A DNA stretch of 63,596 bases, taken from the IMG/VR virus record IMGVR_UViG_3300005098_000067, positions 1 through 63,596 of that record. One strand, 5' to 3'. The translations under genes were made by a program, and so were the position numbers. The notes beneath the pieces are model-generated. The model was not told the origin of the DNA. It was given only the letters and a program-made list of their open reading frames with translations, and did not search any database. Of the stretch, positions 16,922-54,648 are shown in pieces (within the stretch, counting starts at the first letter, position 1; each line of letters starts with the position of its first letter). Source of the DNA: a virus. Its lineage: Duplodnaviria > Caudoviricetes.

Positions 16922-16990
16922 TAGCCTGCCTCATCAGCACCTGGGCGGCTACCCCAAGTGAACTGGGGGCTGAGTCCCCCAGTTTCGGCT
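16922..16990 (-). ncRNA. type II hammerhead ribozyme, canonical core
   Basis: GCC-GAAA-[CTGGGGG ACTCAG CCCCCAG]-TT-[CACTTGGG GTAGCCG CCCAGGTG]-CTGATGA-GGC-AGGCTA. Loop TAGCC can pair with the 3' GGCTA. Predicted GUU cleavage between 16961 and 16960. Confidence 0.92.
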
Positions 16991-25703: not shown

Positions 25704-28700
25704 CTACAGACTAGCCGCTGCTAAAGCGGCTACAACATCGTAGTAAATCTCGGCCTCCGACTGTTGATTCGCATAAGCTGCGTTGACTTCTATGTGCACC
25801 GAGCGATCTACTTGACCGCCTCCACCTCCGCCAGCCGCAGCAGGCATGGCCGGCATAACCACCCGGATCTCGGACGCCAATCGAGGTAGCTCAACTCCCG
25901 CCAGCCGGTGGGCTTGCTCGGCAATGTCCGCCAAACCCTGAGCCCACGGCGCCATCGAGTGACTGACCAAATCCACCGGAGCGTCGGGCATCCCCCTGAT
26001 GACATTCGCTAGCTTGTTCAAAACATCTAGAGCAAGGCTAGCCCACCTGCTTAGCTCCTCGAGACCGCTCAGGAACGGATTCAGGATTTCCTCCATGAAC
26101 CAGTTTATCGCCTTACCCAGGACTTCCTCAACGACACGGGCTCCCTCCTTCAGCCACGGCACCACATCCTCCTCGATGACTTTGCGAACTTTGTCCAGTG
26201 CCGGATAGAGCGTATCACTCCACAGGCTTGCCAGGTCAGTAACGTTCTTTTTCATGGCTGAAATGTAGATTTCGACCAAATCCTGGAAAATCGGCATGAC
26301 ATTCTCTTGGATGAAGGCCCAGACTTTCTTTAGGGCGGGCCACAAGACCTCGCTCCAGAAGTCCGCCAGGTCCGAAATATTCCGCATCATGGCAGCGATG
26401 TAGATTTCAACCAGGCTCTGGAAAATCGGGATGATGTTCTCCTGGATGAAGGCCCAGACCTTCTGCAAAGCTGGCCACAGGGTCTCGCTCCAGAAGCTCG
26501 CTAAGTCCTTCACGTTTTTTATCATGGCTGCAATGTAGATGCTGACCAAAGCCTGGAAGATAGGGATGACCGACCCCTGAATGAAAGCCCAGACTTTCTT
26601 TAGGGCCGGGGCCAACACATCCTCCCAGAAGCTTGCCACCTTGCTTAAGGTGGCCGGTACATTATCGCGCAACCAGGTGATGAACGACTCAAATCCAGCT
26701 TTCACCTGTTCGCCGTGCTCTGCCCACCAGGACTGCAAAGCCGCAAGCAGATCCTCGATGGCCGACAGGGCTATGTGCATAACCTTTATGATCGTGGCCG
26801 CTATCTTCGGCCAGTGCTCCTCCAGCCAAATGCTGATAGCTGCAAAAGCATCTGTGACCAGCGGCCCTATCGTCTCGGCCAAGTAAGCTAATGCACCCGT
26901 GACGCCCTCGATGACCGTCCGAACGATGATCTCGACGCGCGGCCAATTGAACTCCAGCCAGCGCAGCACCGCCGCAAAGATGCCCACCAGCGAGGGCATG
27001 ACGCGACCCACAAAATCTCCGATTACATTCGTGACTACCTCTGACCAGGCCAGTAGCACCCGTTCAATGTCAGGCCAAATTCGCTTCGCCAGGCGCTGGA
27101 TTCCGCCCCAGGTCTGGCTTATGATTTGGCCTATGCTCTTTGCGGCTTTGCCCAGGAGATCAAAGGTCTTGCCCAACCCGGTCAGAACCTTCTTGACCCA
27201 GGGGATGGCCATGGCCTTGTCAAGCATATCCTGAAACAGCCCTCCTAGCGCATCTCGCAGGCTCTCTACCTCCGGCATCGTCTCGCCCAAGTCGAGTTCG
27301 ACTTCTACCTGCAAGTCTTCTGCCTCGCCTAAGGCTTGAGCAACAGCCTCCGTTGCCTCGGCGACCTCCTCCATTGATTCGCCTAGGTCTTCAATACTCA
27401 GCTTCGCCACCGCGTCGGCGAGTTTGGCCATGATGTCTTTCTGCTGCTCCATGACCTGCTTGGTCTGATAGTGCAGGTCTAGCTTGGCCTCGGCAATGGC
27501 CATCTCCTCTTTCAGCTCATCCATCCGGTCTTGCGCCTGCCGCTGAGCATTGCGCAGAGCTATTCGCTCCTCGACCTGCATGGCGTGCTGGATGCGCTGC
27601 TGGCGCCGTGCCTCCTCCACTTGCTTGTGCAGGGCGCTCGCCCCGGCTTCGTACTGCTCTTCGGTGATTTCCCCGGCCTCGAGCTTCTGGCGTAGCTCCT
27701 CAAGACCGAGAACCTCGGCGGCTTCGGCGCGCTCAATCGCCTCACTGAAGGGCCGCAGAGCATCGTCGAGCTCCTCGAACCGCTCCTGAATCCGGGCCAG
27801 GCCTTCCGCCTCCTCTTGGTACCTGACCTGGAGCCGAATCACGTCCACCAGCCCTTGCCCGACCTCCCCCAGTGAGGAGCTAATATTCTCCAGGGACTCC
27901 TCGAAGACGTCCCAATTCGTCCAATCGGGAGTGCCGATGCTGATGACCGATGCCAGGGCTTCCCGAAGCTCTACAAACGTCTCGGCAAACTTCCCGACTT
28001 CAATTTCCCCACCCAGTACCATGAGCTCCAGCGGCCCTCGAAACCGCTCCGCTAAATCCTTTAGCATATTGAAATCGGCAGACGAGAAGCCTGCCAAATA
28101 GACGTTCATCGCCTCCGTGCCCCATTTGCCCAAATCCGGCAAGAACTGGGGCGGGGACTTGGCCTTCATCATGCCTGAAATGAAAGATGCCACCGACTGA
28201 AGCGCCGAGGCCAAATAGGTCTTTATACCTTCGATTATCCCCCCGGCGTAGGAGGCCATGAGATTTCTGCCCCAACCCACGACTCGTTGCACCATCCCTT
28301 TGAACAGCACTATCACTGACGCCAGAGCCGTCTGCCAGGCCCTGGCAAACAGTCGACCGGCCTCCTCCGCGTTCCCCGACAGCAACTCCTTGAATGAATC
28401 CAGGATCAGCGACACGGCGCGAAAGACGTAGTTAAAGTGCTCCCCAAACTTGCTGATGTATGAAGTCGCGCGTCCCAACGTGGAGCCGATGCCCGCCGCC
28501 AACTGCTCAAAGATCGGCTGCAGGCGACCCACCACTAGGGAGACGACCTCCTGCACCTGGGCGCTGATCTGCTGCCCCCAGTTCTGCCATATCTCGATTA
28601 CCGGAGCCATGGCTTCCTTGATGCTGGTCATCACTTGCTCTATGGCTGTACCCAATCCGCCCCAGTCCCGCTTAATTGCCAAAGCCACCAACCCAATGGT

Positions 28701-29753
28701 CGCGCCCAGGGCAGCTAACGGGATGGACAGGGGCAAGACCGTCTTCACAACCGCGCTCAGGGCAACTTTCACCAAGGCCAACTGGGATGCTATCTTGGGC
28801 AATAGCGCCAACTTGAGCGCAAGAGCCCCGGTCAAGAGTCCTATTGCAGCCGTGGCTGCAATGACGGACGCGATTAACTTGTGCACGACCGGCGGCAGGG
28901 CAATTATGAACTTGAGCACATCTTTAGTAGCGAAGACTATCGCCCGAAAGGCGGGGAACAGGTGCTCACCTATGGCCAGGGTAGCTGTGTGAGCGTACCG
29001 AGACAGCGAGCGCATCATCTTCGCCGGATTTTTCATGGCCTCAGCGTAGACCCCAGCGTACTTGCTCGCCGACTCCATGATCGTGTTCAACATGGCTTGC
29101 CGCTTCTCGGTGACCGTCAGCTGCTCAGCCGTCTTGCCCACGGATTTAGCGTACTTCCCGTACATCTTCTCGCCGGACGTTATAATGCCGAACTGCCACA
29201 GCAACATCGGGTTCAGGCCCACCAACGCGGCTGTCAAGCGCTGCGCTGAGAGCGAAGAGTCCAGTCCGGCAACGACGGCCATGTTCTGGGCGGCCGTGGC
29301 TATGTCTGTAGCTTGAGCAACGTCCAGCTCAGATTGCATGAACTGGGTTAGCATCGTCCGCGAAGCGTCCACGGTCATTCCGACGTTGCGGAGCTCCATC
29401 TCAAGCTCGTGGAGACGCTCCTTGCTTATGTTTGCATTCTGGCCCACGACCTCCATGACGATTCGGAGCTCGTCCGAGCGAGCAGCGGTCATGGCGAACT
29501 TCTTGCCCAGAGCTAGTGCCCCACCTCCCAGAGCGCTCAGGGTGCCGCCCAAGACAGCTAACCCGGGGCTTGCAGCCTCCAACGTGCCGAGCAAACCCCG
29601 GGTTCGTTCTTCCATCTGAGTCGTGGCTTGTGCCGCCGCGCCCATGCTATCCGCTATGCCTGCATTCGACATCTTGACCGAACGCGCGGCGCTCTCATAC
29701 GCGGCCAGCCCGGCCATAGTCAGTTGTAAGCCTAGCGTCCGGGCCAAAGTCAT
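25704..29753 (-). CDS. tail tape measure protein
   Basis: 1349 aa, Ala/Leu-rich and helical, with roughly 40-aa Trp-periodic repeats at about 26200-26640. Confidence 0.92.
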   Translation of the reverse strand: MTLARTLGLQLTMAGLAAYESAARSVKMSNAGIADSMGAAAQATTQMEERTRGLLGTLEAASPGLAVLGGTLSALGGGALALGKKFAMTAARSDELRIVMEVVGQNANISKERLHELEMELRNVGMTVDASRTMLTQFMQSELDVAQATDIATAAQNMAVVAGLDSSLSAQRLTAALVGLNPMLLWQFGIITSGEKMYGKYAKSVGKTAEQLTVTEKRQAMLNTIMESASKYAGVYAEAMKNPAKMMRSLSRYAHTATLAIGEHLFPAFRAIVFATKDVLKFIIALPPVVHKLIASVIAATAAIGLLTGALALKLALLPKIASQLALVKVALSAVVKTVLPLSIPLAALGATIGLVALAIKRDWGGLGTAIEQVMTSIKEAMAPVIEIWQNWGQQISAQVQEVVSLVVGRLQPIFEQLAAGIGSTLGRATSYISKFGEHFNYVFRAVSLILDSFKELLSGNAEEAGRLFARAWQTALASVIVLFKGMVQRVVGWGRNLMASYAGGIIEGIKTYLASALQSVASFISGMMKAKSPPQFLPDLGKWGTEAMNVYLAGFSSADFNMLKDLAERFRGPLELMVLGGEIEVGKFAETFVELREALASVISIGTPDWTNWDVFEESLENISSSLGEVGQGLVDVIRLQVRYQEEAEGLARIQERFEELDDALRPFSEAIERAEAAEVLGLEELRQKLEAGEITEEQYEAGASALHKQVEEARRQQRIQHAMQVEERIALRNAQRQAQDRMDELKEEMAIAEAKLDLHYQTKQVMEQQKDIMAKLADAVAKLSIEDLGESMEEVAEATEAVAQALGEAEDLQVEVELDLGETMPEVESLRDALGGLFQDMLDKAMAIPWVKKVLTGLGKTFDLLGKAAKSIGQIISQTWGGIQRLAKRIWPDIERVLLAWSEVVTNVIGDFVGRVMPSLVGIFAAVLRWLEFNWPRVEIIVRTVIEGVTGALAYLAETIGPLVTDAFAAISIWLEEHWPKIAATIIKVMHIALSAIEDLLAALQSWWAEHGEQVKAGFESFITWLRDNVPATLSKVASFWEDVLAPALKKVWAFIQGSVIPIFQALVSIYIAAMIKNVKDLASFWSETLWPALQKVWAFIQENIIPIFQSLVEIYIAAMMRNISDLADFWSEVLWPALKKVWAFIQENVMPIFQDLVEIYISAMKKNVTDLASLWSDTLYPALDKVRKVIEEDVVPWLKEGARVVEEVLGKAINWFMEEILNPFLSGLEELSRWASLALDVLNKLANVIRGMPDAPVDLVSHSMAPWAQGLADIAEQAHRLAGVELPRLASEIRVVMPAMPAAAGGGGGGQVDRSVHIEVNAAYANQQSEAEIYYDVVAALAAASL

Positions 29754-31998: not shown

Positions 31999-33114
31999 TT
32001 ACATCCGGCCGCCACCTTTCCCGTAGTTGTACGGCGAGTGCTCGGCGAACATCCAGGCCGCCCAGGCCCCATTACTTAGCCCCCAGGGGCAATTCACTCG
32101 CTCCCTGGTCATCGTCGCCGGTTCCGCCCGATCTCGCTTCCAAAACCGGTGCTGGACGTCCTTTCCCGATGGGCATTCTACTTCCGGCATCAGTGAGTGC
32201 GCCAATCTGAGAACGGCATCCTCGAAGGTCGGCAGCGCGTGCGCCAGGCCGGCCCGATAGGCTACCTTGACCTGGCTGGGCTGCCCTTTGAAACAAGTGC
32301 CCCTGTACCACCTCCCACCGCTGTACGTCGCCGGGAAGATGTTCACCCAGGATAGCTCCCGTTCTACAGGCACTATGCAGGCTGATTGCAACGCTATCTC
32401 GCAACTCCCTGCGCAAACGCAGTCTTCCACCTGGACTTGAGCTTGCTGAGATACATCTGCATACTCGCGGGTGACTGCTAACTCGGTGACAAAGTTGTCC
32501 AAGTCTTCCCAGGCAACCGGCACATTCTCCTCACCCATAAGCTCCGGCTTGACCAACCGCCATCGGGGGAACGTGACGGTGACGTTTACCGGCCCAAAAT
32601 CTATCGCCGAGGGCTCTGGTCCGCTTTCGTAGAGCATATCGCTGTACCAAACCCGCACTTCGTCCACCGCCCCCACGCCTCCATGCGGGACTTGGACTTG
32701 CCCTGTTTCTCCAGCATAGACTACCGGAGCATGGGCCTCGTACACCGATACCGCCTTAGCCCCCCCCGTGATGAAGTGATGCCAGCGCAGCGATATGGGA
32801 TTTCGACCGACAAACCTGACCCACTCCTCCGGTATCCAGGTTGGCAACAGGTGAACCCCCAACTTGCTGGCCATCAGAGCCCGAGCCTCACAGAGCCGAA
32901 GGGCTATCCTCCACCGCTCCGGCCCTGTCCAGAACTGGCATTTAGGTGAGGTATAGCTCCCTCGCTTGACTCCCCAAAACTCCAGCTCAGGAATGCCGAG
33001 AACCCGAGCATACCTGGAAAGCGAGACGGCGCACATGCCAGCGCCGGGTTCCCCGCCCCAGGGAGCTCCAGGTGCTACCGGATATCCTAGACCAAACCCT
33101 GCCTCTACCGTCAC
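31999..33114 (-). CDS. head-tail connector/adaptor-like protein
   Basis: Position between capsid and tail genes; VKVAYRAG motif. Confidence 0.55.
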   Translation of the reverse strand: MTVEAGFGLGYPVAPGAPWGGEPGAGMCAVSLSRYARVLGIPELEFWGVKRGSYTSPKCQFWTGPERWRIALRLCEARALMASKLGVHLLPTWIPEEWVRFVGRNPISLRWHHFITGGAKAVSVYEAHAPVVYAGETGQVQVPHGGVGAVDEVRVWYSDMLYESGPEPSAIDFGPVNVTVTFPRWRLVKPELMGEENVPVAWEDLDNFVTELAVTREYADVSQQAQVQVEDCVCAGSCEIALQSACIVPVERELSWVNIFPATYSGGRWYRGTCFKGQPSQVKVAYRAGLAHALPTFEDAVLRLAHSLMPEVECPSGKDVQHRFWKRDRAEPATMTRERVNCPWGLSNGAWAAWMFAEHSPYNYGKGGGRM

Positions 33115-33338
33115 CTCGCTCCCCCACCCTCGGCCTCCCGCTCAAAATCCTTACTGTCCTCGAAGAATTTGACGTCTTCGGGATGCACTATGACCGGTCG
33201 CCCGGGGAAAATGGAATACGACCCTACCCTGAAATTCCCGGTTCGCCTTCCTATGTACTTGAATCTAACCCAGGCTTTCCCAGGCTTGCTTGCACGCCAC
33301 CGGCGTGCTGGCGCTCGCCTCGTTCCTCCTCAGCCCAT
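33111..33338 (-). CDS. candidate selenoprotein (MG-U-GG..., 75 aa; in-frame TGA at codon 3)
   Basis: ATG GGC TGA GGA GGA, then an open frame to a stop overlapping the next start (GTGA). Hairpin GCACGCC-GGT-GGCGTGC lies downstream of the UGA. Similar to the N-terminus of the upstream ORF. Confidence 0.55.
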
Positions 33339-33341
33339 TTC

Positions 33342-33848
33342 CTAGTCCTTGATGCAGCGGTGGAACCGCTTGAACCGAGGATCGTAGCGGGCGTCCTCAA
33401 GCGTCAAGAACTTTCCCACCGGTTTGGTCGGTGCATTGGGGCAGGTTCGACGATGAACAAGCCCGGCTGAGGACATCAGGAACGGGTACTCGCCCGCTTC
33501 CATCTCCTCCGTTAGCTGTTCCTCGGACTGGGCCAGCAACTCTGCCGCTTTCAGCAGGGCATCGACGTCAGGAGCGTCCGGCAAGCTGCCAGGCGGGTAA
33601 CGCATCCGCCCGTGCAGCAGGACTGGCTCCTCTGGCTTCGGCTTGGGCTTGGGCTTTGTCCCGCCCCAACGAACCAGCTCGAAATCCTGAAGCTTCTGAT
33701 AAGCCAGAGCCTCTGCCTCAGGCAACCACTTGCGACGCAGGGCAGGGTGCCTGCTCCATCGCCGCGTCTTGCCTCCCCGTGTCACGGAAAACGGCGCTGC
33801 ACGCGGCCCGGTGTACTTAATCAACCCTAAACGCCCCTCGTTGGCCAT
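33342..33848 (-). CDS. hypothetical protein with C-terminal H..C / H.C motif
   Basis: GAGGAGG RBS; KYTG motif and PK linker. Confidence 0.6.
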   Translation of the reverse strand: MANEGRLGLIKYTGPRAAPFSVTRGGKTRRWSRHPALRRKWLPEAEALAYQKLQDFELVRWGGTKPKPKPKPEEPVLLHGRMRYPPGSLPDAPDVDALLKAAELLAQSEEQLTEEMEAGEYPFLMSSAGLVHRRTCPNAPTKPVGKFLTLEDARYDPRFKRFHRCIKD

Positions 33849-34960
33849 CTTGACCTCCTCTCACGTGCTCTAAAAAACGCTGGATTTCTATCGTACACTT
33901 CGGCTACATATTTTTGCTTATCGCGCAGAATTCTGGACAGCATCCCCCGGCCCCGTCGCTTCCTGTAGAACACTAATGCCTCGACCACTCGCTCTGGCTG
34001 AACCCCCGCCTGCATCAACCGCGCGTGAAAATCCCAGCTCTCGAAAGCCGCAATCGTCTCGTCGTACCCTCCCACCGCTATCCAATCGTCCTTGGCGAAC
34101 AGGATCGCCGGGTGCGCCGGCTGCATGGACTGCATTGTGCTCTCGTTGACTACAACCTTGACGTGCCGGTTTGCATCGCCGAAAAGCTGGACATCTGGAT
34201 GCATCCACCGGCCGGGCTTCCAGGCGGCACGCATGGCAGCAACCGCTCCCGGTTCGAGAGCATCGTCGGCATCCAGGCTAACTATGAATTGCGTCCTGGC
34301 CACCCTAATACCTGCATTCCGAGCTTTCGGCAACCCCCGGTTCTCTTTGAGCTGCAAAACATACACGGGCCTGCCCCTGAACTCTTCCAGTGCTCCTGGA
34401 ACGTCCGGTGAACCGTCGTCGACTACCAAGACGATGCAGCCTGATGCTAGCGCTGACTTAACCGCCTGCGGCAAGAACTCTTCGTGCCGGTAGCACGGCA
34501 CAACTGCTGTGACCAGCCCGTCTGCCTTACCCTGCCACCAACTTGTCGGCGCAGGCCAAAACCGAAGCGGGCTCTCGAAGAGGGCTTCCCGAAACGCCTG
34601 CCAGGGATTCAGACTTTGGAGCTTATTCTGCCACCTGGCTATCAGCCTGTCCGTCCCCGGCGAGCGCTTGACAAAGGCCAGGGGCAAGAAATAGCCTACC
34701 GGGTCATCCTTGTAACCTGCCAGCGGACTTATCCACTCGTAGCCTCGCTCCAGCTGCTTGAACGCTAGTCTGACAAATGCCGATTTCGGACAGCGCGCCT
34801 CCGAGCCCAGGAACATGAACTCGTCGAACTGCGCCTCGGCGAGCCTGTCGGCGTAGTGCAAGGGCATGGCATACTCAACCTCTTGCACCTCCCAATCGGG
34901 GTAACAGGCCGCTGCTCTCTGTGCCGCTTCCGCTCCCACGGCCACGATCCCGCGTTTCAT
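33827..34960 (-). CDS. glycosyltransferase family 2
   Basis: VVPCY, VVDDGS, NRGLPKARNAG, LDADD, GGYDE and ESWDF motifs. Confidence 0.9.
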   Translation of the reverse strand: MKRGIVAVGAEAAQRAAACYPDWEVQEVEYAMPLHYADRLAEAQFDEFMFLGSEARCPKSAFVRLAFKQLERGYEWISPLAGYKDDPVGYFLPLAFVKRSPGTDRLIARWQNKLQSLNPWQAFREALFESPLRFWPAPTSWWQGKADGLVTAVVPCYRHEEFLPQAVKSALASGCIVLVVDDGSPDVPGALEEFRGRPVYVLQLKENRGLPKARNAGIRVARTQFIVSLDADDALEPGAVAAMRAAWKPGRWMHPDVQLFGDANRHVKVVVNESTMQSMQPAHPAILFAKDDWIAVGGYDETIAAFESWDFHARLMQAGVQPERVVEALVFYRKRRGRGMLSRILRDKQKYVAEVYDRNPAFFRARERRSRWPTRGV

Positions 34961-47364: not shown

Positions 47365-47592
47365 CTAACGGCATAACCCTGCTGCTTCGTCCAGCCAGGC
47401 GATCTCCGTCTGGCCATTGTGTCCATGGATGGCTCGGACGTCGGCTATGTCGTCATAGACGGCAACCGACCTTAGCTTTGTGAGCCAGGCTACCACGCAT
47501 TTGCCCGTGGAGAACTGCACTCCCTCCGCGACTATCCCTGTGCCCGAGATCCCCGATTCGTCTACCTTCCTGTCCAAGATGAAGCAACGCAT
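47365..47592 (-). CDS. conserved small phage protein (D.SGISGTG.VAEGV.F family)
   Basis: Recognisable motif ending IHGHNG.T. Confidence 0.7.
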   Translation of the reverse strand: MRCFILDRKVDESGISGTGIVAEGVQFSTGKCVVAWLTKLRSVAVYDDIADVRAIHGHNGQTEIAWLDEAAGLCR

Positions 47593-49697
47593 CACCGAAA
47601 CCTCAGGAAGCAATAGCAACCCGGGTGATAGGCAGGACCGAAGTAGCCGGGTACTACCTCGGCACTTAACGGCACCCAGCCGGCCGCCTCCGCTCTGATG
47701 CAGACTCCAGAAGGGCAGGGGCGACCGTAATCCGCCCGAACTGATGACTTCTCGACCATACCTGCATCCTCGGCGGCAGTGAGCTGACCTTGGGCCCATA
47801 GAGCTGTATTCTCAGTGACCCCTATCCTCTTGGCGCGGGCTTCCCCGAAAAGAGGAATCAGAGCGTCTTCCAAATCTGACCAGGCCAGAGTGCCATCTGC
47901 AAGCCGGGCGCGAACCTTGCCCAACTTGGAGCGAGTCACGCGGACTATGGACTCGTCCCCATCCAACTTGACCAGAGCAAACGCCTGCTGCTCGGCCAGC
48001 AGGCGAATCCGATCGTTGATCCGCTCGAACGAGAAGTCTAACCCTGTGGAGCTCGCACCCTGGCCCGCTGTCAACTGGTAGGGACCTAATACTTGCTCGC
48101 GGATGGAATCCCCCCAGTCCTCCCAGTAGGAATCCTCATCAAGACTGTCAGGGTCATCCTCGAGGCGGGCAAGCACATCCCTCTTCCACCGAGCCAGAAT
48201 AGCCGTGAACAGTGCTGTCAACGTCTCCCAATCCTTGCGCATCAGGCTGATCATGGCCTCTATGCCTGCTCGCTCGCGGGCTGTCTTCAGCACGGGTAGG
48301 GCGGAGCTGTTCAGGTCCCAATAGCGACGGTGGCGAATCAGTACCCCTTCGGGATACCGCATTGTCCCCACGTCGCAACCCCACAGCTCACGCAATACAT
48401 CCGTCGCCAACCGTTCGGGCGGGGTGACGTAGCGCTGTGGGATTACCTGCTGCTCGGCCAGCATTTCCCGGATTTCCTCCCGCTCGAAGAGGCGCTCTCC
48501 CTTAGCATCCGGAGCCCACAGTTCCTTGGCATTCCTGATCCGTAGGGCGCGGATCTCCTCAACCAGCTTGTCCTGCTCGTCGTCAGGCGTGTCAAACCGC
48601 CAGTAGAATCCCTTGGGCAGCTGGCGATTCACCCAACGCTCCCAAGAGACCATGAACTCGGCCGGGCCTTTGCCCAGAGCCTTCCGATGTTGCAAGGACG
48701 CCTGGGCCTTGGTCGCCCCGTGCGCCTCGATCTGATAGAATTCAGCCACGTCCTCCCCGGCGTCCAGGGCAAGGGTCTTCATGAACCGCTGCATGAACGC
48801 CGCATCGTCAAATCCTTCCCACACCGAGCGAAAGGACGTCCAGGAGACCTCAGCTTTTTGACCATACGTGTTACTGACCAGCCACAACACCCCAGGGAAG
48901 ACCAGCGAGCCTGCCTCCTGCCGCTTTAGATCGAACTCCAGCAAAGCATTCTCCAGCTGGGGCTTCGTCAAGCCCGTGACGCTGGCAATCCCTGAAGGCG
49001 GCAGATTTCCCAACCGCTCCTCTTTGAACTCCAACTCCTCGGCTGCCAGGGCTGCCTCCCTGAGAACCCGGCTCATGAAACAAAAGCCCAGCATCCGCCG
49101 CCACTGGTCGGCGCTGGGCATAGAGCAAATCCGCACAAACTGGCCCCGCTTGAGCCCCTTCCAACGTCCGTCAGCATCCATGAACAAAAGGTCGAATATT
49201 TCTGTCCCCACGCGTACAGGGCCAGGGACGCAGGTTCGCGCCTGCATCCACCAGATCTTTTGCAGCGGGCCGTCTGGTTGCCATTCCCGAGCTGTCTCGA
49301 TGATGAACCCCTCGTCAGTGCTCAGGTAGTCGATGTAGCCGGGGCGAATGAAGTCCGTCCAGCCGTCCAGGTCGGCCCCGGCGAATATCTCATACTGGCG
49401 CTCCAGCTGCTTGACCGGGCCCGAAATGGACCAACCCAATGCTGCCACACGCGAGACCATGCTGAACATGACCCCCGACAGGCGCGAGTCGGCTCTCCAG
49501 ACAGCCTCCAGGAAGGCAGGGCGGGTTATGGGCGTCCCCCAGGGCGGAGCGGCGTCGTGGGCCGTGCGCAGCCAGTCCGCGTAGGAGGCCATGATCCAGC
49601 CGCCCTGGGCCAATATCTCGGGCCTCTCGATCCGCGCCTGGACGCTTCTCGGCGAATCTCCCTTGGCATCCGTGATAGCTACCAATTCATCCAGCAT
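47592..49697 (-). CDS. portal protein fused to a MuF (minor head) domain
   Basis: Portal-sized N-terminus; C-terminal RAKRIGVTE...C..C...PAYHPGCYC MuF signature. Confidence 0.8.
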   Translation of the reverse strand: MLDELVAITDAKGDSPRSVQARIERPEILAQGGWIMASYADWLRTAHDAAPPWGTPITRPAFLEAVWRADSRLSGVMFSMVSRVAALGWSISGPVKQLERQYEIFAGADLDGWTDFIRPGYIDYLSTDEGFIIETAREWQPDGPLQKIWWMQARTCVPGPVRVGTEIFDLLFMDADGRWKGLKRGQFVRICSMPSADQWRRMLGFCFMSRVLREAALAAEELEFKEERLGNLPPSGIASVTGLTKPQLENALLEFDLKRQEAGSLVFPGVLWLVSNTYGQKAEVSWTSFRSVWEGFDDAAFMQRFMKTLALDAGEDVAEFYQIEAHGATKAQASLQHRKALGKGPAEFMVSWERWVNRQLPKGFYWRFDTPDDEQDKLVEEIRALRIRNAKELWAPDAKGERLFEREEIREMLAEQQVIPQRYVTPPERLATDVLRELWGCDVGTMRYPEGVLIRHRRYWDLNSSALPVLKTARERAGIEAMISLMRKDWETLTALFTAILARWKRDVLARLEDDPDSLDEDSYWEDWGDSIREQVLGPYQLTAGQGASSTGLDFSFERINDRIRLLAEQQAFALVKLDGDESIVRVTRSKLGKVRARLADGTLAWSDLEDALIPLFGEARAKRIGVTENTALWAQGQLTAAEDAGMVEKSSVRADYGRPCPSGVCIRAEAAGWVPLSAEVVPGYFGPAYHPGCYCFLRFR

Positions 49698-51596: not shown

Positions 51597-53054
51597 CTAG
51601 ACGACCAATGCCCCCCCGGCTTGTATGCCCCCAAATCGGGCGGCCTCGGCGAGGACGTGTTCAGCGGCATCCGAGAAGTCGTTGAGCTTCTTCACCTCTA
51701 ATCCCTTTGTGTTTCTGTGGAGTGCTTTGAACTGTTGGGCGACCGTGGGGCAGGCCTCGCGGTCTATCTGGAGCAGGGGGCCTTTGTCGGGGTCAATGAG
51801 CCTCCGTACCAGCCTATGGCGTTCTTCACGCCGCATGACCCGCAGGGGGACGACCACCAGGCCTGCCTCGGCGAACGCGGCAAGGGATGAGGGCTGATCT
51901 GGCGGGCAGAAGAAGGGCGTATCCCAGCCGTACTTGTCGGCCAGCGATACTGCTATCTCCAGTTCCCTGGATGGGGTGCAGAAGCGCTCTCCCCGTTCCT
52001 CAATGAGCCAATAGCGGCCCCCTGGGAGCTCAGCAGCGACGACGAAGACGAGCGGGTGATCGAACCCCCAGTCCACTCCTACGCCCTGGGGAGTACGGCG
52101 CAGCTTGGCTACCTCAGGAGCTAGGCGGGAGGCGTGCACCTCGACGGAGAAGCGAGGGAAGATGAGCATTTCGCGCTCCGGGGCGGCCAGGAGTTTCTGT
52201 ACCAGGAAGGTCTCCGCGTCCGAGGATAAGTACTCGTCTATGGCATCGACGCGTCTTACCCAGCCGTCCGCTCTAATGCACCGCCCGCCGCAGAGTGGCT
52301 CTTTCTTGTTCGTTCGCGGGTTCGTCCAGACGAAGAGCGGGCACTTCTCCCGGAGGCAGGTCTCACAGCGCTGCATGGTCTCCCAAAGGCACCATCGGTA
52401 GGTCTTGTACCCCCGCGCCCTTGCTATGGGGAGCAACTCTTGCATGAGCCCGTAGGCTGTGTACCGAGTGCTTATAGCCGCGCGTTGGGGCGGGTTGGCT
52501 TTCGAGCCCGAAAGCATGAGCTGGGCCGTCTCGAAGTTCTGGAACGACCAGAGGTCTATCTCGTCCATGATCAGCCTGTTACAGCGAATGGCCGTGACCC
52601 CTGTAGGCGTGTGACCTGAAAGGGCGCGAACCCAGGACCCGTTCTTCCAGGTGATGCTCCCGGCCACGTTCCGCGCAATGTCGGCAGCTAAAGCTGGCTC
52701 TTTGAGCATGTCGACCAGGTAGCCGTGCCCCCATTCCCCCTGGCTGCCTATGGCCCCATAGTGCGCTGTGCCTGAACCTGGATAGAACTTCGAGGCGAGC
52801 AGGTTCAGGATGGCCAGGTTTCGGGTCTTGCCTGCACCACGAGCGGCCAGGACCAGGGCTCTCTGAACCTTGCGGAAGAACATGTCCGAGACGAACGTGA
52901 AGGGGGCTTGGTGGTCTGGACAGACGGCTACACGGGGAATCTTGAAGCCGAGGACGGCATGGATCCAGGCGTGGAGCGCTTCGGGCGTCTTGGGGCGACG
53001 GCCGGAGACTACCAGGAGCTGCCAAAGGTTGCTGAGGAGGCTTTCGTCGGTCAT
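51597..53054 (-). CDS. terL: terminase large subunit
   Basis: AARGAGKT (Walker A), LIMDEID (Walker B), IST, GVDWGFDHP nuclease motif and C-terminal NDFSDA. Confidence 0.9.
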   Translation of the reverse strand: MTDESLLSNLWQLLVVSGRRPKTPEALHAWIHAVLGFKIPRVAVCPDHQAPFTFVSDMFFRKVQRALVLAARGAGKTRNLAILNLLASKFYPGSGTAHYGAIGSQGEWGHGYLVDMLKEPALAADIARNVAGSITWKNGSWVRALSGHTPTGVTAIRCNRLIMDEIDLWSFQNFETAQLMLSGSKANPPQRAAISTRYTAYGLMQELLPIARARGYKTYRWCLWETMQRCETCLREKCPLFVWTNPRTNKKEPLCGGRCIRADGWVRRVDAIDEYLSSDAETFLVQKLLAAPEREMLIFPRFSVEVHASRLAPEVAKLRRTPQGVGVDWGFDHPLVFVVAAELPGGRYWLIEERGERFCTPSRELEIAVSLADKYGWDTPFFCPPDQPSSLAAFAEAGLVVVPLRVMRREERHRLVRRLIDPDKGPLLQIDREACPTVAQQFKALHRNTKGLEVKKLNDFSDAAEHVLAEAARFGGIQAGGALVV

Positions 53055-54646
53055 TTGTCGTCGTTGGGTGGGCGGAGCAATTCAGGGGCCAAATCCCGAA
53101 TGCCAGCGATCTGCTCCAGCAAGCGTGTGAACTGCTCCTCCTCCATGCCTGCAACGATGACATTCAGGGTTCTAGCGTCTACCTTCGTCCCGGTCTCCAG
53201 CTTGCCCAGCAACCGGCCCAGGAGCGCAATGTCTCCTGAAAGCTGAGCTGAGAGACCGGATGCCTCTTTGGTCAGAGCCCCTCCCAGGGCCACCGACTCG
53301 ATGAGCAACTGGCGAGACAGCCGCGCTGAGTCCATCTGAACTTTTGCCCACATGAAGTTCAACAGGCCCTCGAAGTTGCGACTGCCTAGCATATCGCCTA
53401 GGGCCGCAAATTCATTATCAAACGCGCAAGCTGCCCCCTCTTCATACCTGGGGCATTTGCCCATCAGGGCGCAATCGTCACAGCGCAGCCGAGGCACCCG
53501 AGCCGTGTCCTGACCGGCTCGAAGAGCGTAAACATTGCCCTTCTGCGCCTCGGAGATGGCTGCCTTGTGCTCCGGGGAGAGTGTCACTTGCCGGGGAGGC
53601 TTGTTGCCGCCCCGACCTAACCCGTGCCTTTTACACGCCCCTTCTGTCTCCGGTGACCCACAGGTGCAGATTTCATTTTCATTCACCACGGGCAAGAGCT
53701 CTGGCGGGGGCTGATTCCAATAGTCGAGCTTGCGACGGCGCTGGACCTCCGTCAAATAGGTCTCAAAGTAGGCCCACACCCTGGCATTGACAAAATCTAC
53801 CGCGCGTGCGTCGTCTTCGAGGTAGGGCGTGACCAGCTCCTCAGGGACGGGCAAACCCTTGGCTTCTAGGTCACGGAGCACTTTCTCCCGTCTATGCCTC
53901 CTCTCCCGCAGGTCCCCGGTCTCAAAGTGCCCAATCCCTCGCGCCGGGTCCAGGAAATACGTCGAGCCGTACATCGACCCGGCCTTCCAGGACGTGGAAT
54001 CGACCGAGAAGAACCCCGGCACCTTGTATAGCACCTCCAAAGCTGTCGTGGCAAAGGAGTGCAACTTCGCCCCGTGCTTCCTGCACCTTCCCAAAATCCG
54101 CATCTGGCCGTTCACGCCGGCGAGAATCCCGGTTGAGCCCGCTCCCTGGGTGGCCACATACGGGAACTCCGAGGCCCACTCCTCCCAAACCTGCCAGCAC
54201 CGCCCTCCCACCTGCACGTCCTGGCTGGTATGAAAAACAGGAACGTACTTCTCACGGGGGAATCCGGCCTTGAGCGCCTGCTCACGCCAGGACAAGACCG
54301 TGGGCAAGCCCACGATGCTGTCGATGTCTAGCTCCACAAACGCATCGGCATACTCGTGGAACTCCAGAAGAAACTCCAGGTAGTCGGCCCAGAAGTCCTC
54401 CGGCTTGCCTACGGAGGTCTTGCGCTGCTTGGTGGCAATGAAGCCCGCCTCCGAGAAAAACGAGTGAGCCCCTGAGTCGATCATGACAAACTCGAAGTTC
54501 TTTCGCAGCTGTTCCAGGCGCTCCCGTTTCTTGGCTGGCGATAGTTTGCGCAGGATGACGAAGGACGTCAAGACTGACTTGGCCCCTGCCCGGGCCAGCA
54601 GTTCAATGTCCTTCGCCCTATCCGCCCCTGCCAAACAGAGATGCAT
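53051..54646 (-). CDS. TGT/DpdA-like TIM-barrel protein fused to a terminase-small-subunit-like C-terminus
   Basis: LTSF, MIDSGAHS, ELDID, PVFH, LHSF and SVDSTSW, then QKGNVYALRAG, CxxC...C..C and a helical tail. ATGA-coupled to terL. Confidence 0.7.
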   Translation of the reverse strand: MHLCLAGADRAKDIELLARAGAKSVLTSFVILRKLSPAKKRERLEQLRKNFEFVMIDSGAHSFFSEAGFIATKQRKTSVGKPEDFWADYLEFLLEFHEYADAFVELDIDSIVGLPTVLSWREQALKAGFPREKYVPVFHTSQDVQVGGRCWQVWEEWASEFPYVATQGAGSTGILAGVNGQMRILGRCRKHGAKLHSFATTALEVLYKVPGFFSVDSTSWKAGSMYGSTYFLDPARGIGHFETGDLRERRHRREKVLRDLEAKGLPVPEELVTPYLEDDARAVDFVNARVWAYFETYLTEVQRRRKLDYWNQPPPELLPVVNENEICTCGSPETEGACKRHGLGRGGNKPPRQVTLSPEHKAAISEAQKGNVYALRAGQDTARVPRLRCDDCALMGKCPRYEEGAACAFDNEFAALGDMLGSRNFEGLLNFMWAKVQMDSARLSRQLLIESVALGGALTKEASGLSAQLSGDIALLGRLLGKLETGTKVDARTLNVIVAGMEEEQFTRLLEQIAGIRDLAPELLRPPNDDK

Positions 54647-54648
54647 TA

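Follow-up and report, generated by a model that had tools for sequence, protein, structure and literature searches.

Bacterial selenoprotein genes, of which E. coli fdhF is the prototype, carry an in-frame UGA where homologues have Cys and, just 3' of it and inside the open reading frame (ORF), a stem-loop that serves as selenocysteine insertion sequence (SECIS) and is read by SelB. Here we analyse a candidate gene of this kind in an uncultured tailed phage from sediment: a small gene on the minus strand of the viral record IMGVR_UViG_3300005098_000067, in which the third codon is TGA. The whole of this linear record of 63,596 bases (∼60% G+C, with an estimated completeness of 58%) is referred to below as the window. 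Like the bacterial genes, the window gene has UGA at a position where homologues have Cys, followed closely by a stem-loop within the ORF. It differs from them in being phage-encoded and in belonging to an undescribed family, and all of the machinery would need to be supplied by the host. In addition, its UGA is the third codon, so that the putative SECIS begins ∼20 nt after the start codon.

Two further systems provide useful comparisons. In phage Q-beta, programmed read-through of a UGA of the coat gene gives the A1 protein, so that, as proposed for the window gene, phage translation continues past a UGA. In Q-beta, however, the main functional protein is the short one and it does not matter which residue is inserted, whereas in the window gene a ribosome that stopped at the UGA would release a dipeptide, and the codon stands on an invariant Cys. 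Selenocysteine (Sec) decoding as such is known from cells and from two poxviruses with captured host peroxidase genes; passages of one article name as viral selenoproteins only these two glutathione peroxidases, from molluscum contagiosum and fowlpox viruses (PMC8310308). These share with the window gene a virus-encoded UGA, with Sec decoding by the host machinery. They belong, however, to eukaryotic viruses, derive from captured cellular GPx genes and use a eukaryotic-type SECIS, whereas the window gene comes from a tailed phage, encodes a small protein of unassigned function and has a bacterial-type signal. A literature search using phage and prophage selenoprotein phrasings found no report for any bacteriophage, and the terms phage, virus and viral do not occur in a 2026 review of prokaryotic selenoproteomes (PMC13188914).

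Layout and translation of the small gene

The elements of the small gene, as read on the minus strand, are as follows. L003, L051 and L068 are related viral loci of a sister lineage, described below.

33111-33338, minus strand: whole small gene, 75 codons plus stop, beginning M-G-[UGA]-G-G-T-R-R; supported by a tblastn match to the syntenic L003 locus and by purifying selection in the sister lineage
33346-33350, minus strand: Shine-Dalgarno-like AAGGA, 7 nt 5' of the ATG, recognised from the sequence
33336-33338, minus strand: ATG start codon; the same ATG lies two codons before the TGA in L003, L051 and L068, and equals the M of the M-x-C-C-G motif of relatives
33333-33335, minus strand: GGC, codon 2, followed by TGA and then GGA GGA ACG
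33330-33332, minus strand: in-frame TGA, codon 3, candidate selenocysteine codon; the same TGA is present in the sister lineage, and it aligns with an invariant Cys
33111-33114, minus strand: GTGA overlap between the TGA stop of the small gene (33111-33113) and the GTG start of a 371-residue protein gene (33112-33114)

The original prediction had described ATG GGC TGA GGA GGA, an open frame and a GTGA overlap within an apparent gap of 230 bp, and all of these statements about the sequence hold. From the TGA to the stop there are 72 open codons, and the window's other two frames on the same strand contain stops. The GTG start of the 371-residue protein is in keeping with its homologues, which have similar starts (MTVVS, MTIVP).

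An open frame of this length is not in itself informative. Over 36 kb of the window phage (60% GC) the wrong frames hold 193 open runs of at least 72 codons, and the codon-usage score of the small frame is only +10.8, against a mean of 22 in true genes, being concentrated in the second half and negative across the first 20 codons. Since open runs are common in such G+C-rich DNA and the codon score is low, the frame alone proves nothing. Searches with the 72-residue frame against called proteins gave no word-sharing candidate in one case and, against 1.84 billion representatives, two matches that are both tandem-repeat artefacts. The phage records contained no DNA or protein match, and single-protein scans of viral contigs gave nothing. 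Gene callers unable to find a start for the gene would leave it uncalled, which would account for the lack of real homologues among called proteins.

We therefore used the neighbouring 371-residue protein as a handle for comparison; it has 34 homologues, and 44 related viral loci were fetched. Three further relatives, P0004, P0005 and P0006, show 46-56% identity in the neighbouring gene. With tblastn, the 72-codon frame matched L002/L003 at the syntenic place, between the homologue of a 168-residue protein gene and the 371-residue gene, with 38% identity over 63 residues (E 3e-7). The L003 sequence reads GAGGGA-N8-ATG GGT TGA GGG TGC CCA, the Gly codon differing synonymously from the GGC of the window. 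A second variant of this sister lineage, with L051 identical to L068, came from a metagenome scan and a further viral scan, and ATG GGT TGA GGG is thus common to L003, L051 and L068, which are from separate assemblies. The small protein of the window is ∼40% identical to that of the sister lineage. The window represents a second, independent lineage in which this TGA recurs, and its hairpin is the better of the two. At one further locus, L052, the 371-residue homologue is preceded by a fibre-like gene and not by the small gene. Public-run contigs matching parts of the region comprised three pieces from marine sediment, 100% identical, and four from a hydrothermal vent, 95-99% identical; no RNA data set was among the runs listed for the region.

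The two sister variants allow the mode of evolution of the frame to be judged. L003 and L051 differ at 31 of the 240 bases of the small gene, and 23 of these differences fall at codon position 3 (p 4e-6); in terms of codons there are 21 synonymous changes and six replacements, the informative changes beginning at codon 13. The same pattern is seen in the two flanking genes. This excess of synonymous and third-position change argues that the frame is translated and under purifying selection, and we conclude from the comparison of sequences that a genuine late gene of 75 codons occupies the 228-bp 'gap'.

The question is then where its translation begins. An SD-like site (Shine-Dalgarno, SD) lies 7-8 nt before the ATG in all three sequences, in L003 and L051 as GAGGGA at 8 nt. 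The first canonical in-frame start 3' of the TGA in the window is a GTG at codon 51 (33186-33188), and translation from it would lose the conserved core. In L003 the first is a TTG at codon 30, but this is CTG in L051, where the first canonical start is at codon 60. The original prediction had noted the lack of an alternative in-frame start near the 5' end, and this is borne out more widely, since no canonical start 3' of the TGA is conserved among the window, L003 and L051. As judged by this alignment, the only start conserved across the three is the ATG two codons before the TGA. Read-through from the upstream 168-residue gene was also considered and rejected: in L003 the homologue of that gene is in another frame (with a TAATG overlap), so read-through from it is not conserved.

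Cysteine-bearing relatives and the candidate SECIS

A hidden Markov model (HMM) built from five seeds was run on the 44 loci fetched with the 371-residue family. The domain encoded by the small gene is present in 29 of them, upstream of the 371-residue family gene, and forms with Cys occur in 27, as well as in P0038 and P0040. The 23 distinct Cys forms have an N-terminus of the type M-(G/A/S)-C-C-G or a close variant, then a basic or Ser-rich linker and then the beta domain. One further copy of the domain, L026 3-1124, is without the M-x-C-C-G arm. A profile search with alignment A4 found three small proteins only. Two free-standing called proteins start MGCCGG and MSCCG.

The M of this motif is a genuine start, since GGAG or GAGG is found at -18 to -5 before the ATG in 22 of the 23 Cys forms, against a background of 9%. 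In 21 of the 23, the SD site and ATG lie in frame within the 3' end of a glycosyltransferase family 2 (GT2) ORF with no stop between, and hence a cell could make both a fusion and a nested small protein. Examples of such nested loci are L017 1803, L030 2995 and L015 1109. In many of the longer Cys forms, L013, L010 and L009 among them, the domain is followed by a Pro-rich linker and a C-terminal stretch which by eye resembles a helix-hairpin-helix or HeH motif; the window protein is without this part.

In the alignments, the TGA codons of the window, L003 and L051 share a column with the first Cys of the motif, a residue present without exception in the Cys forms (23/23 in alignment A4 and 25/25 in alignment A7). 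Pairing of Cys with Sec is given, in passages of the review cited above, as a criterion for finding selenoproteins (PMC13188914). The check suggested with the original prediction, a tBLASTn search for homologues with Cys or TGA at codon 3, thus recovered both, TGA in a second deep lineage and Cys in all 25 forms, and no homologue has Trp, Arg or another residue at this position, which would have refuted the prediction. At the N-terminus the window gene has the SD site and ATG, M-G-[TGA]-G-G and a basic arm. As its first Cys is TGA and its second is Gly (the second Cys of the pair is replaced by Gly in both TGA lineages), the M-x-C-C-G motif is present only to the extent that the TGA is read as Sec or Cys.

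Other features link the window gene to this family. They occupy the same place in the virion module, close to GT2 genes and 5' of the 371-residue family gene, and in each case an SD site and ATG are followed by M-G, a basic linker and a beta domain of the pattern Y-x-G ... Y ... D. The window domain retains the family's invariant G30 and Y41 and the near-invariant Y28 and D55, and hhalign of alignment A8 against A7, with the first three residues left out, gives E 9.6e-5 over 46 columns. Apart from having TGA and Gly, respectively, in place of the two Cys, the window gene is unlike the family in being free-standing, whereas most relatives are in frame behind a glycosyltransferase ORF, and in having no C-terminal extension of the kind seen in many relatives. 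A moderate profile signal, together with synteny and the likeness of the N-termini, points with moderate strength to membership of the M-x-C-C-G family. In the protein family databases Pfam, PHROGs and NCBIfam, no family was found for the window protein or the 26 aligned members (there was one chance match each in Pfam and PHROGs), and neither the window protein nor the aligned members matched the NCBIfam selenoprotein families. When viral contigs were scanned for the pattern M-[GA]-U-C-G, at least 119 stretches matched, and the domain is present in none of the 80 loci fetched.

Downstream of the TGA, the window can form the following structure.

33283-33319, minus strand: SECIS-like stem-loop, whole structure, -19.1 kcal/mol
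33292-33308, minus strand: upper 7-bp stem GCACGCC-GGT-GGCGTGC, with 33302-33308 paired with 33292-33298 and the loop GGU at 33299-33301; -11.4 kcal/mol alone
33283-33289 and 33313-33319, minus strand: lower interrupted stem, formed by pairing of these two segments

The upper hairpin starts 21 nt after the TGA, and the distance from the UGA to the loop is 28 nt. According to passages of PMC13188914, the bacterial SECIS consensus consists of a 4-16 bp stem and a loop of 3-9 nt whose first two positions include G, placed 16-37 nt from the UGA, with a minimum free energy of -7.5 or lower. The window hairpin agrees with all four constraints as published, and its suggested compatibility with a bacterial SECIS is upheld in this sense. 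The strict form of the test is nevertheless permissive, being passed by 49 of the 1732 TGA triplets of the window (2.8%). In the sister lineage, L003 and L051 are identical over 40 nt that extend from the ATG through the TGA to the hairpin. Only four identical runs in 2 kb are longer, with p ∼0.01 at the regional rate of change and 0.001 at the gene's own rate.

Just 3' of the stem-loop the window has a direct repeat, AGCCTGGG-AA-AGCCTGGG (33269-33286, minus strand). In a 76-nt fold the second copy of AGCCTGGG pairs with GGGCUGAGG around the UGA.

Decoding of the TGA

We consider it somewhat probable, on this comparative evidence, that the small gene encodes a host-dependent selenoprotein in which UGA codon 3 is read as selenocysteine. 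The interpretation put forward in the original prediction is therefore supported, and is the best supported of the readings considered, by the TGA and Cys homologues, by the SECIS constraints and by the lack of a conserved downstream start. Ribosomes would start at the ATG behind the Shine-Dalgarno site and meet the UGA at codon 3, where SelB and Sec-tRNA(Sec) of the host would decode it as selenocysteine, guided by the stem-loop 10-47 nt 3' of the UGA acting as a bacterial SECIS. The product would consist of M-G-U-G-G, a basic flexible arm and a small beta domain, and would be a selenium version of the widespread, undescribed M-x-C-C-G phage family that is linked to virion-module GT2 genes. 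As there is no Sec machinery in the phage records, decoding would depend wholly on the host; Sec would be the residue inserted, with selABCD presumably supplied by the host.

Several observations weigh against this interpretation. The four phage records contained no tRNA-Sec above the cut-off, selD, SelB wing domain or SelA. The TGA is carried by two deep lineages only (three distinct sequences), and the change of the second Cys to Gly means that the N-terminal motif has been altered in both. The relationship to the Cys family is itself of moderate strength. An HMM made from the Cys forms only, applied to 1271 segments, gives the window frame 6.7 bits (E 0.61), which is not significant, and L003 13.5 bits (E 0.0046), and the hhalign probability to the Cys family is 58.5%, indicating moderate homology. 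With only two codons 5' of the TGA, conservation on that side is uninformative, and the matching Logan contigs leave 33312-33447, including the TGA, uncovered. As for the hairpin, the SECIS test is also passed by 3 of the 23 Cys forms after their Cys codon, and neither hairpin matched a SECIS family in Rfam. The hairpin of the sister lineage, CUCGGA-CGGG-UCCGAG, has 6 bp, stands at the minimum spacing of 16 nt and is borderline in energy (-7.1 kcal/mol alone, -9.3 with a 2-bp lower stem), and it is no better than those of shuffled sequences (z -0.3 to -0.4; +1.2 in L051). The hairpin evidence is thus good in the window and modest in the sister lineage, and overall not decisive.

A leaky stop is one alternative. 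A near-cognate tRNA (Trp, Cys or Gly) would read the UGA at low frequency without Sec machinery, the hairpin perhaps helping, to give a little full-length protein with an ordinary residue at position 3. This agrees with the poor SECIS of the sister lineage, with phage records that have no Sec genes and with a frame that is translated although only the ATG before the TGA can start translation. It gives, however, no reason why the stop should stand exactly on the invariant Cys in two deep lineages, nor why the window hairpin should fit the SECIS consensus; and termination would yield a useless dipeptide, whereas the short product of known read-through genes, such as the Q-beta coat gene, is functional. 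We regard a leaky stop as rather unlikely. Another reading moves the start instead. Here ATG-GGY-TGA would be a two-codon coupling mini-ORF, translation of the domain would begin downstream, at a non-canonical codon (ACG, ATT) or by re-initiation, and the Cys-Cys arm would have been lost in the TGA lineages. Against this, the stretch from the TGA to the domain has no conserved ATG, GTG or TTG, and there is no need for a mini-ORF to keep its frame, or the M-G of the family, while the proteins diverge by ∼60%. The basic arm that follows the TGA is also conserved in kind, with synonymous change from codon 13. The in-frame ACG at codon 6 of the window, or codon 9 of L003, is a candidate for such a start, and GGAGGA directly follows the window's TGA; this lies only 1 nt from the ACG, however, and is absent from L003. 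A downstream start is also consistent with the Gly that already replaces the second Cys in both lineages and with the negative codon-usage score of the first 20 codons. We judge it to be unlikely. Neither the leaky stop nor the non-standard start explains a stop on the invariant Cys, in frame with the family's start and two codons beyond it, in a pair of lineages that are only ∼40% identical.

It is also conceivable that the gene is decaying, a nonsense mutation from TGY to TGA in the common ancestor having left an untranslated relic. One base change suffices to turn TGC or TGT into TGA, which is confined to two lineages, and no called protein was matched beyond the two repeat-protein artefacts. 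But the frame has stayed open in both lineages at ∼40% identity, and the changes between the sister variants (21 synonymous against six replacement, 23 of 31 at position 3) do not have the pattern of a relic, making decay very improbable. Nothing more than the in-frame TGA itself favours an altered genetic code, with TGA as sense throughout the phage or host (tables 4 and 25, or as in stop-recoded phages). In the window TGA is an ordinary stop which ends 36 of the 81 minus-strand ORFs, the small gene included; under table 11, open genes reach 1349 codons; and the tRNA searches gave no suppressor tRNA with a UCA anticodon. An altered code is thereby excluded. Nor was a second recoded gene found in the window, either by codon score or from the gaps after TGA stops. 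Comparison of the window with record G003, with TGA read through, likewise gave no second recoded gene, the comparison being swamped by wrong-frame matches.

To return to selenocysteine, its insertion in this gene would have several consequences. UGA at the third codon would be recodable, and phages could rely on host recoding for a late gene, a new kind of host-range determinant. Gene callers would systematically miss such genes; indeed, neither of the protein searches with the 72-residue frame gave a called homologue. We see about an even chance that tailed phages of anoxic sediments borrow the host SelB and tRNA(Sec) in this way, so that Sec at residue 3 of a virion-module protein replaces the first Cys of M-x-C-C-G and the chemistry of the arm is based on selenium. 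A selenium arm might provide a cross-link or metal site that needs to persist in a reducing environment, or might act as acceptor for the glycosyltransferase linked to it.

Among species-representative genomes the small protein had no relative, and the 371-residue protein had only distant relatives, in Chloroflexota and other metagenome-assembled genomes, all without the small gene. The ends of the 'provirus' record G003 hold phage-like genes only.

Neighbourhood, predicted fold and other elements of the window

The long ORFs of the window are on the minus strand only. The genes that place the small gene are these.

51597-53054, minus-strand module: weak terminase match
47592-49697, minus-strand module: weak portal match
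33827-34960, minus strand: GT2-family glycosyltransferase within a glycosyltransferase cluster (PF00535, E 6.5e-19)
33342-33848, minus strand: 168-residue ORF, 5' of the small gene and in the same frame; it ends in a TAG located one codon ahead of the small gene's ATG
25704-29753, minus strand: tape-measure gene

Several ORFs without matches separate the portal match from the glycosyltransferase cluster. After the small gene the order of transcription is the 371-residue ORF, a 496-residue ORF with weak matches to BNR/sortilin-like sequences (beta-propeller repeats), the tape-measure gene and a Dit-like gene. Since it stands between the portal and glycosyltransferase genes and the tape-measure gene, the small gene belongs to the virion module, between head-side and tail genes. 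The original prediction, which placed it in the head module, was imprecise in this respect, as the position is not clearly part of the head.

It had also been proposed that the small protein resembles the N-terminus of the upstream ORF. This could not be substantiated: BLASTP gave nothing, and hhalign gave only a motif of 15-19 residues with ∼5% probability, which is not significant. The 168-residue protein and its L003 and L051 homologues have in common an N-terminal L-x-x-Y-x-G-x5-F-S-V motif, which is faintly like the first strand of the small domain (hhalign probability ∼5%). They also share a C-terminal H-x3-C ... F-H-x-C motif, which is possibly a metal site.

AlphaFold modelling of the small protein gave a mean predicted local distance difference test score (pLDDT) of 75.6 for the whole model, which divides into two parts.

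33279-33329, minus strand: basic disordered N-terminal arm, residues 4-20 (mean pLDDT 56 over residues 1-20)
33129-33278, minus strand: small beta-rich domain, residues 21-70, with the Y-x-G ... Y ... D motif (pLDDT 85-88)

Fold searches gave no match with E of 0.001 or less or Z of 5 or more, and those in the Atlas were to unnamed phage clusters only. The best structural match was the N-terminal domain of B. subtilis YqbF (PDB 2hjq), with Z 4.8 and a root-mean-square deviation of 2.2 over 51 residues. The same match is weak in Foldseek (template modelling score 0.54, E 0.99), and the other weak fold matches include many unnamed small phage proteins. YqbF is, like the window protein, a small protein of a phage-derived element, in its case a Bacillus subtilis prophage. 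There is no sequence similarity between YqbF and the window beta domain, however, and with Z under 8 the likeness could be merely that of a common small fold. We know of no Cys-Cys arm in YqbF.

We infer that the product may be a virion-associated or assembly protein with a flexible N-terminal Cys-Cys arm, here with Sec. The arm may serve as a redox, metal-binding or cross-linking site, and it might possibly be an acceptor for the linked GT2 enzyme.

Some other elements of the window deserve mention. Beside the terminase-like gene, a 608-residue ORF (53051-54877, minus strand) matches the queuine tRNA-ribosyltransferase family PHROG 887 (E 6e-34), which hints at a function in the modification of DNA or tRNA bases. 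The sole tRNA confirmed in the window is tRNA-Thr(TGT) at 13937-14008. ARAGORN also called two elements 'tRNA-???', at 12493-12567 and 16506-16596 (both minus strand), with the four-base anticodons gcct and gcag respectively, and both are below the gathering score of the Rfam tRNA model. A 92-nt tRNA-like element at 15193-15284 (minus strand) has a 7-bp acceptor stem and a canonical T arm (GGUUCGACUCC). It was rejected as a tRNA-Sec, scoring 20 bits against a cut-off of 47 and having no UCA, and it is called neither by ARAGORN nor by the Rfam tRNA model. The region of these tRNA-like elements also contains a match to the type II hammerhead ribozyme (16920-16990, minus strand), which covers the full model (Rfam RF02276) and, at 46.5 bits (E 2.3e-6), lies above the gathering score of 37.

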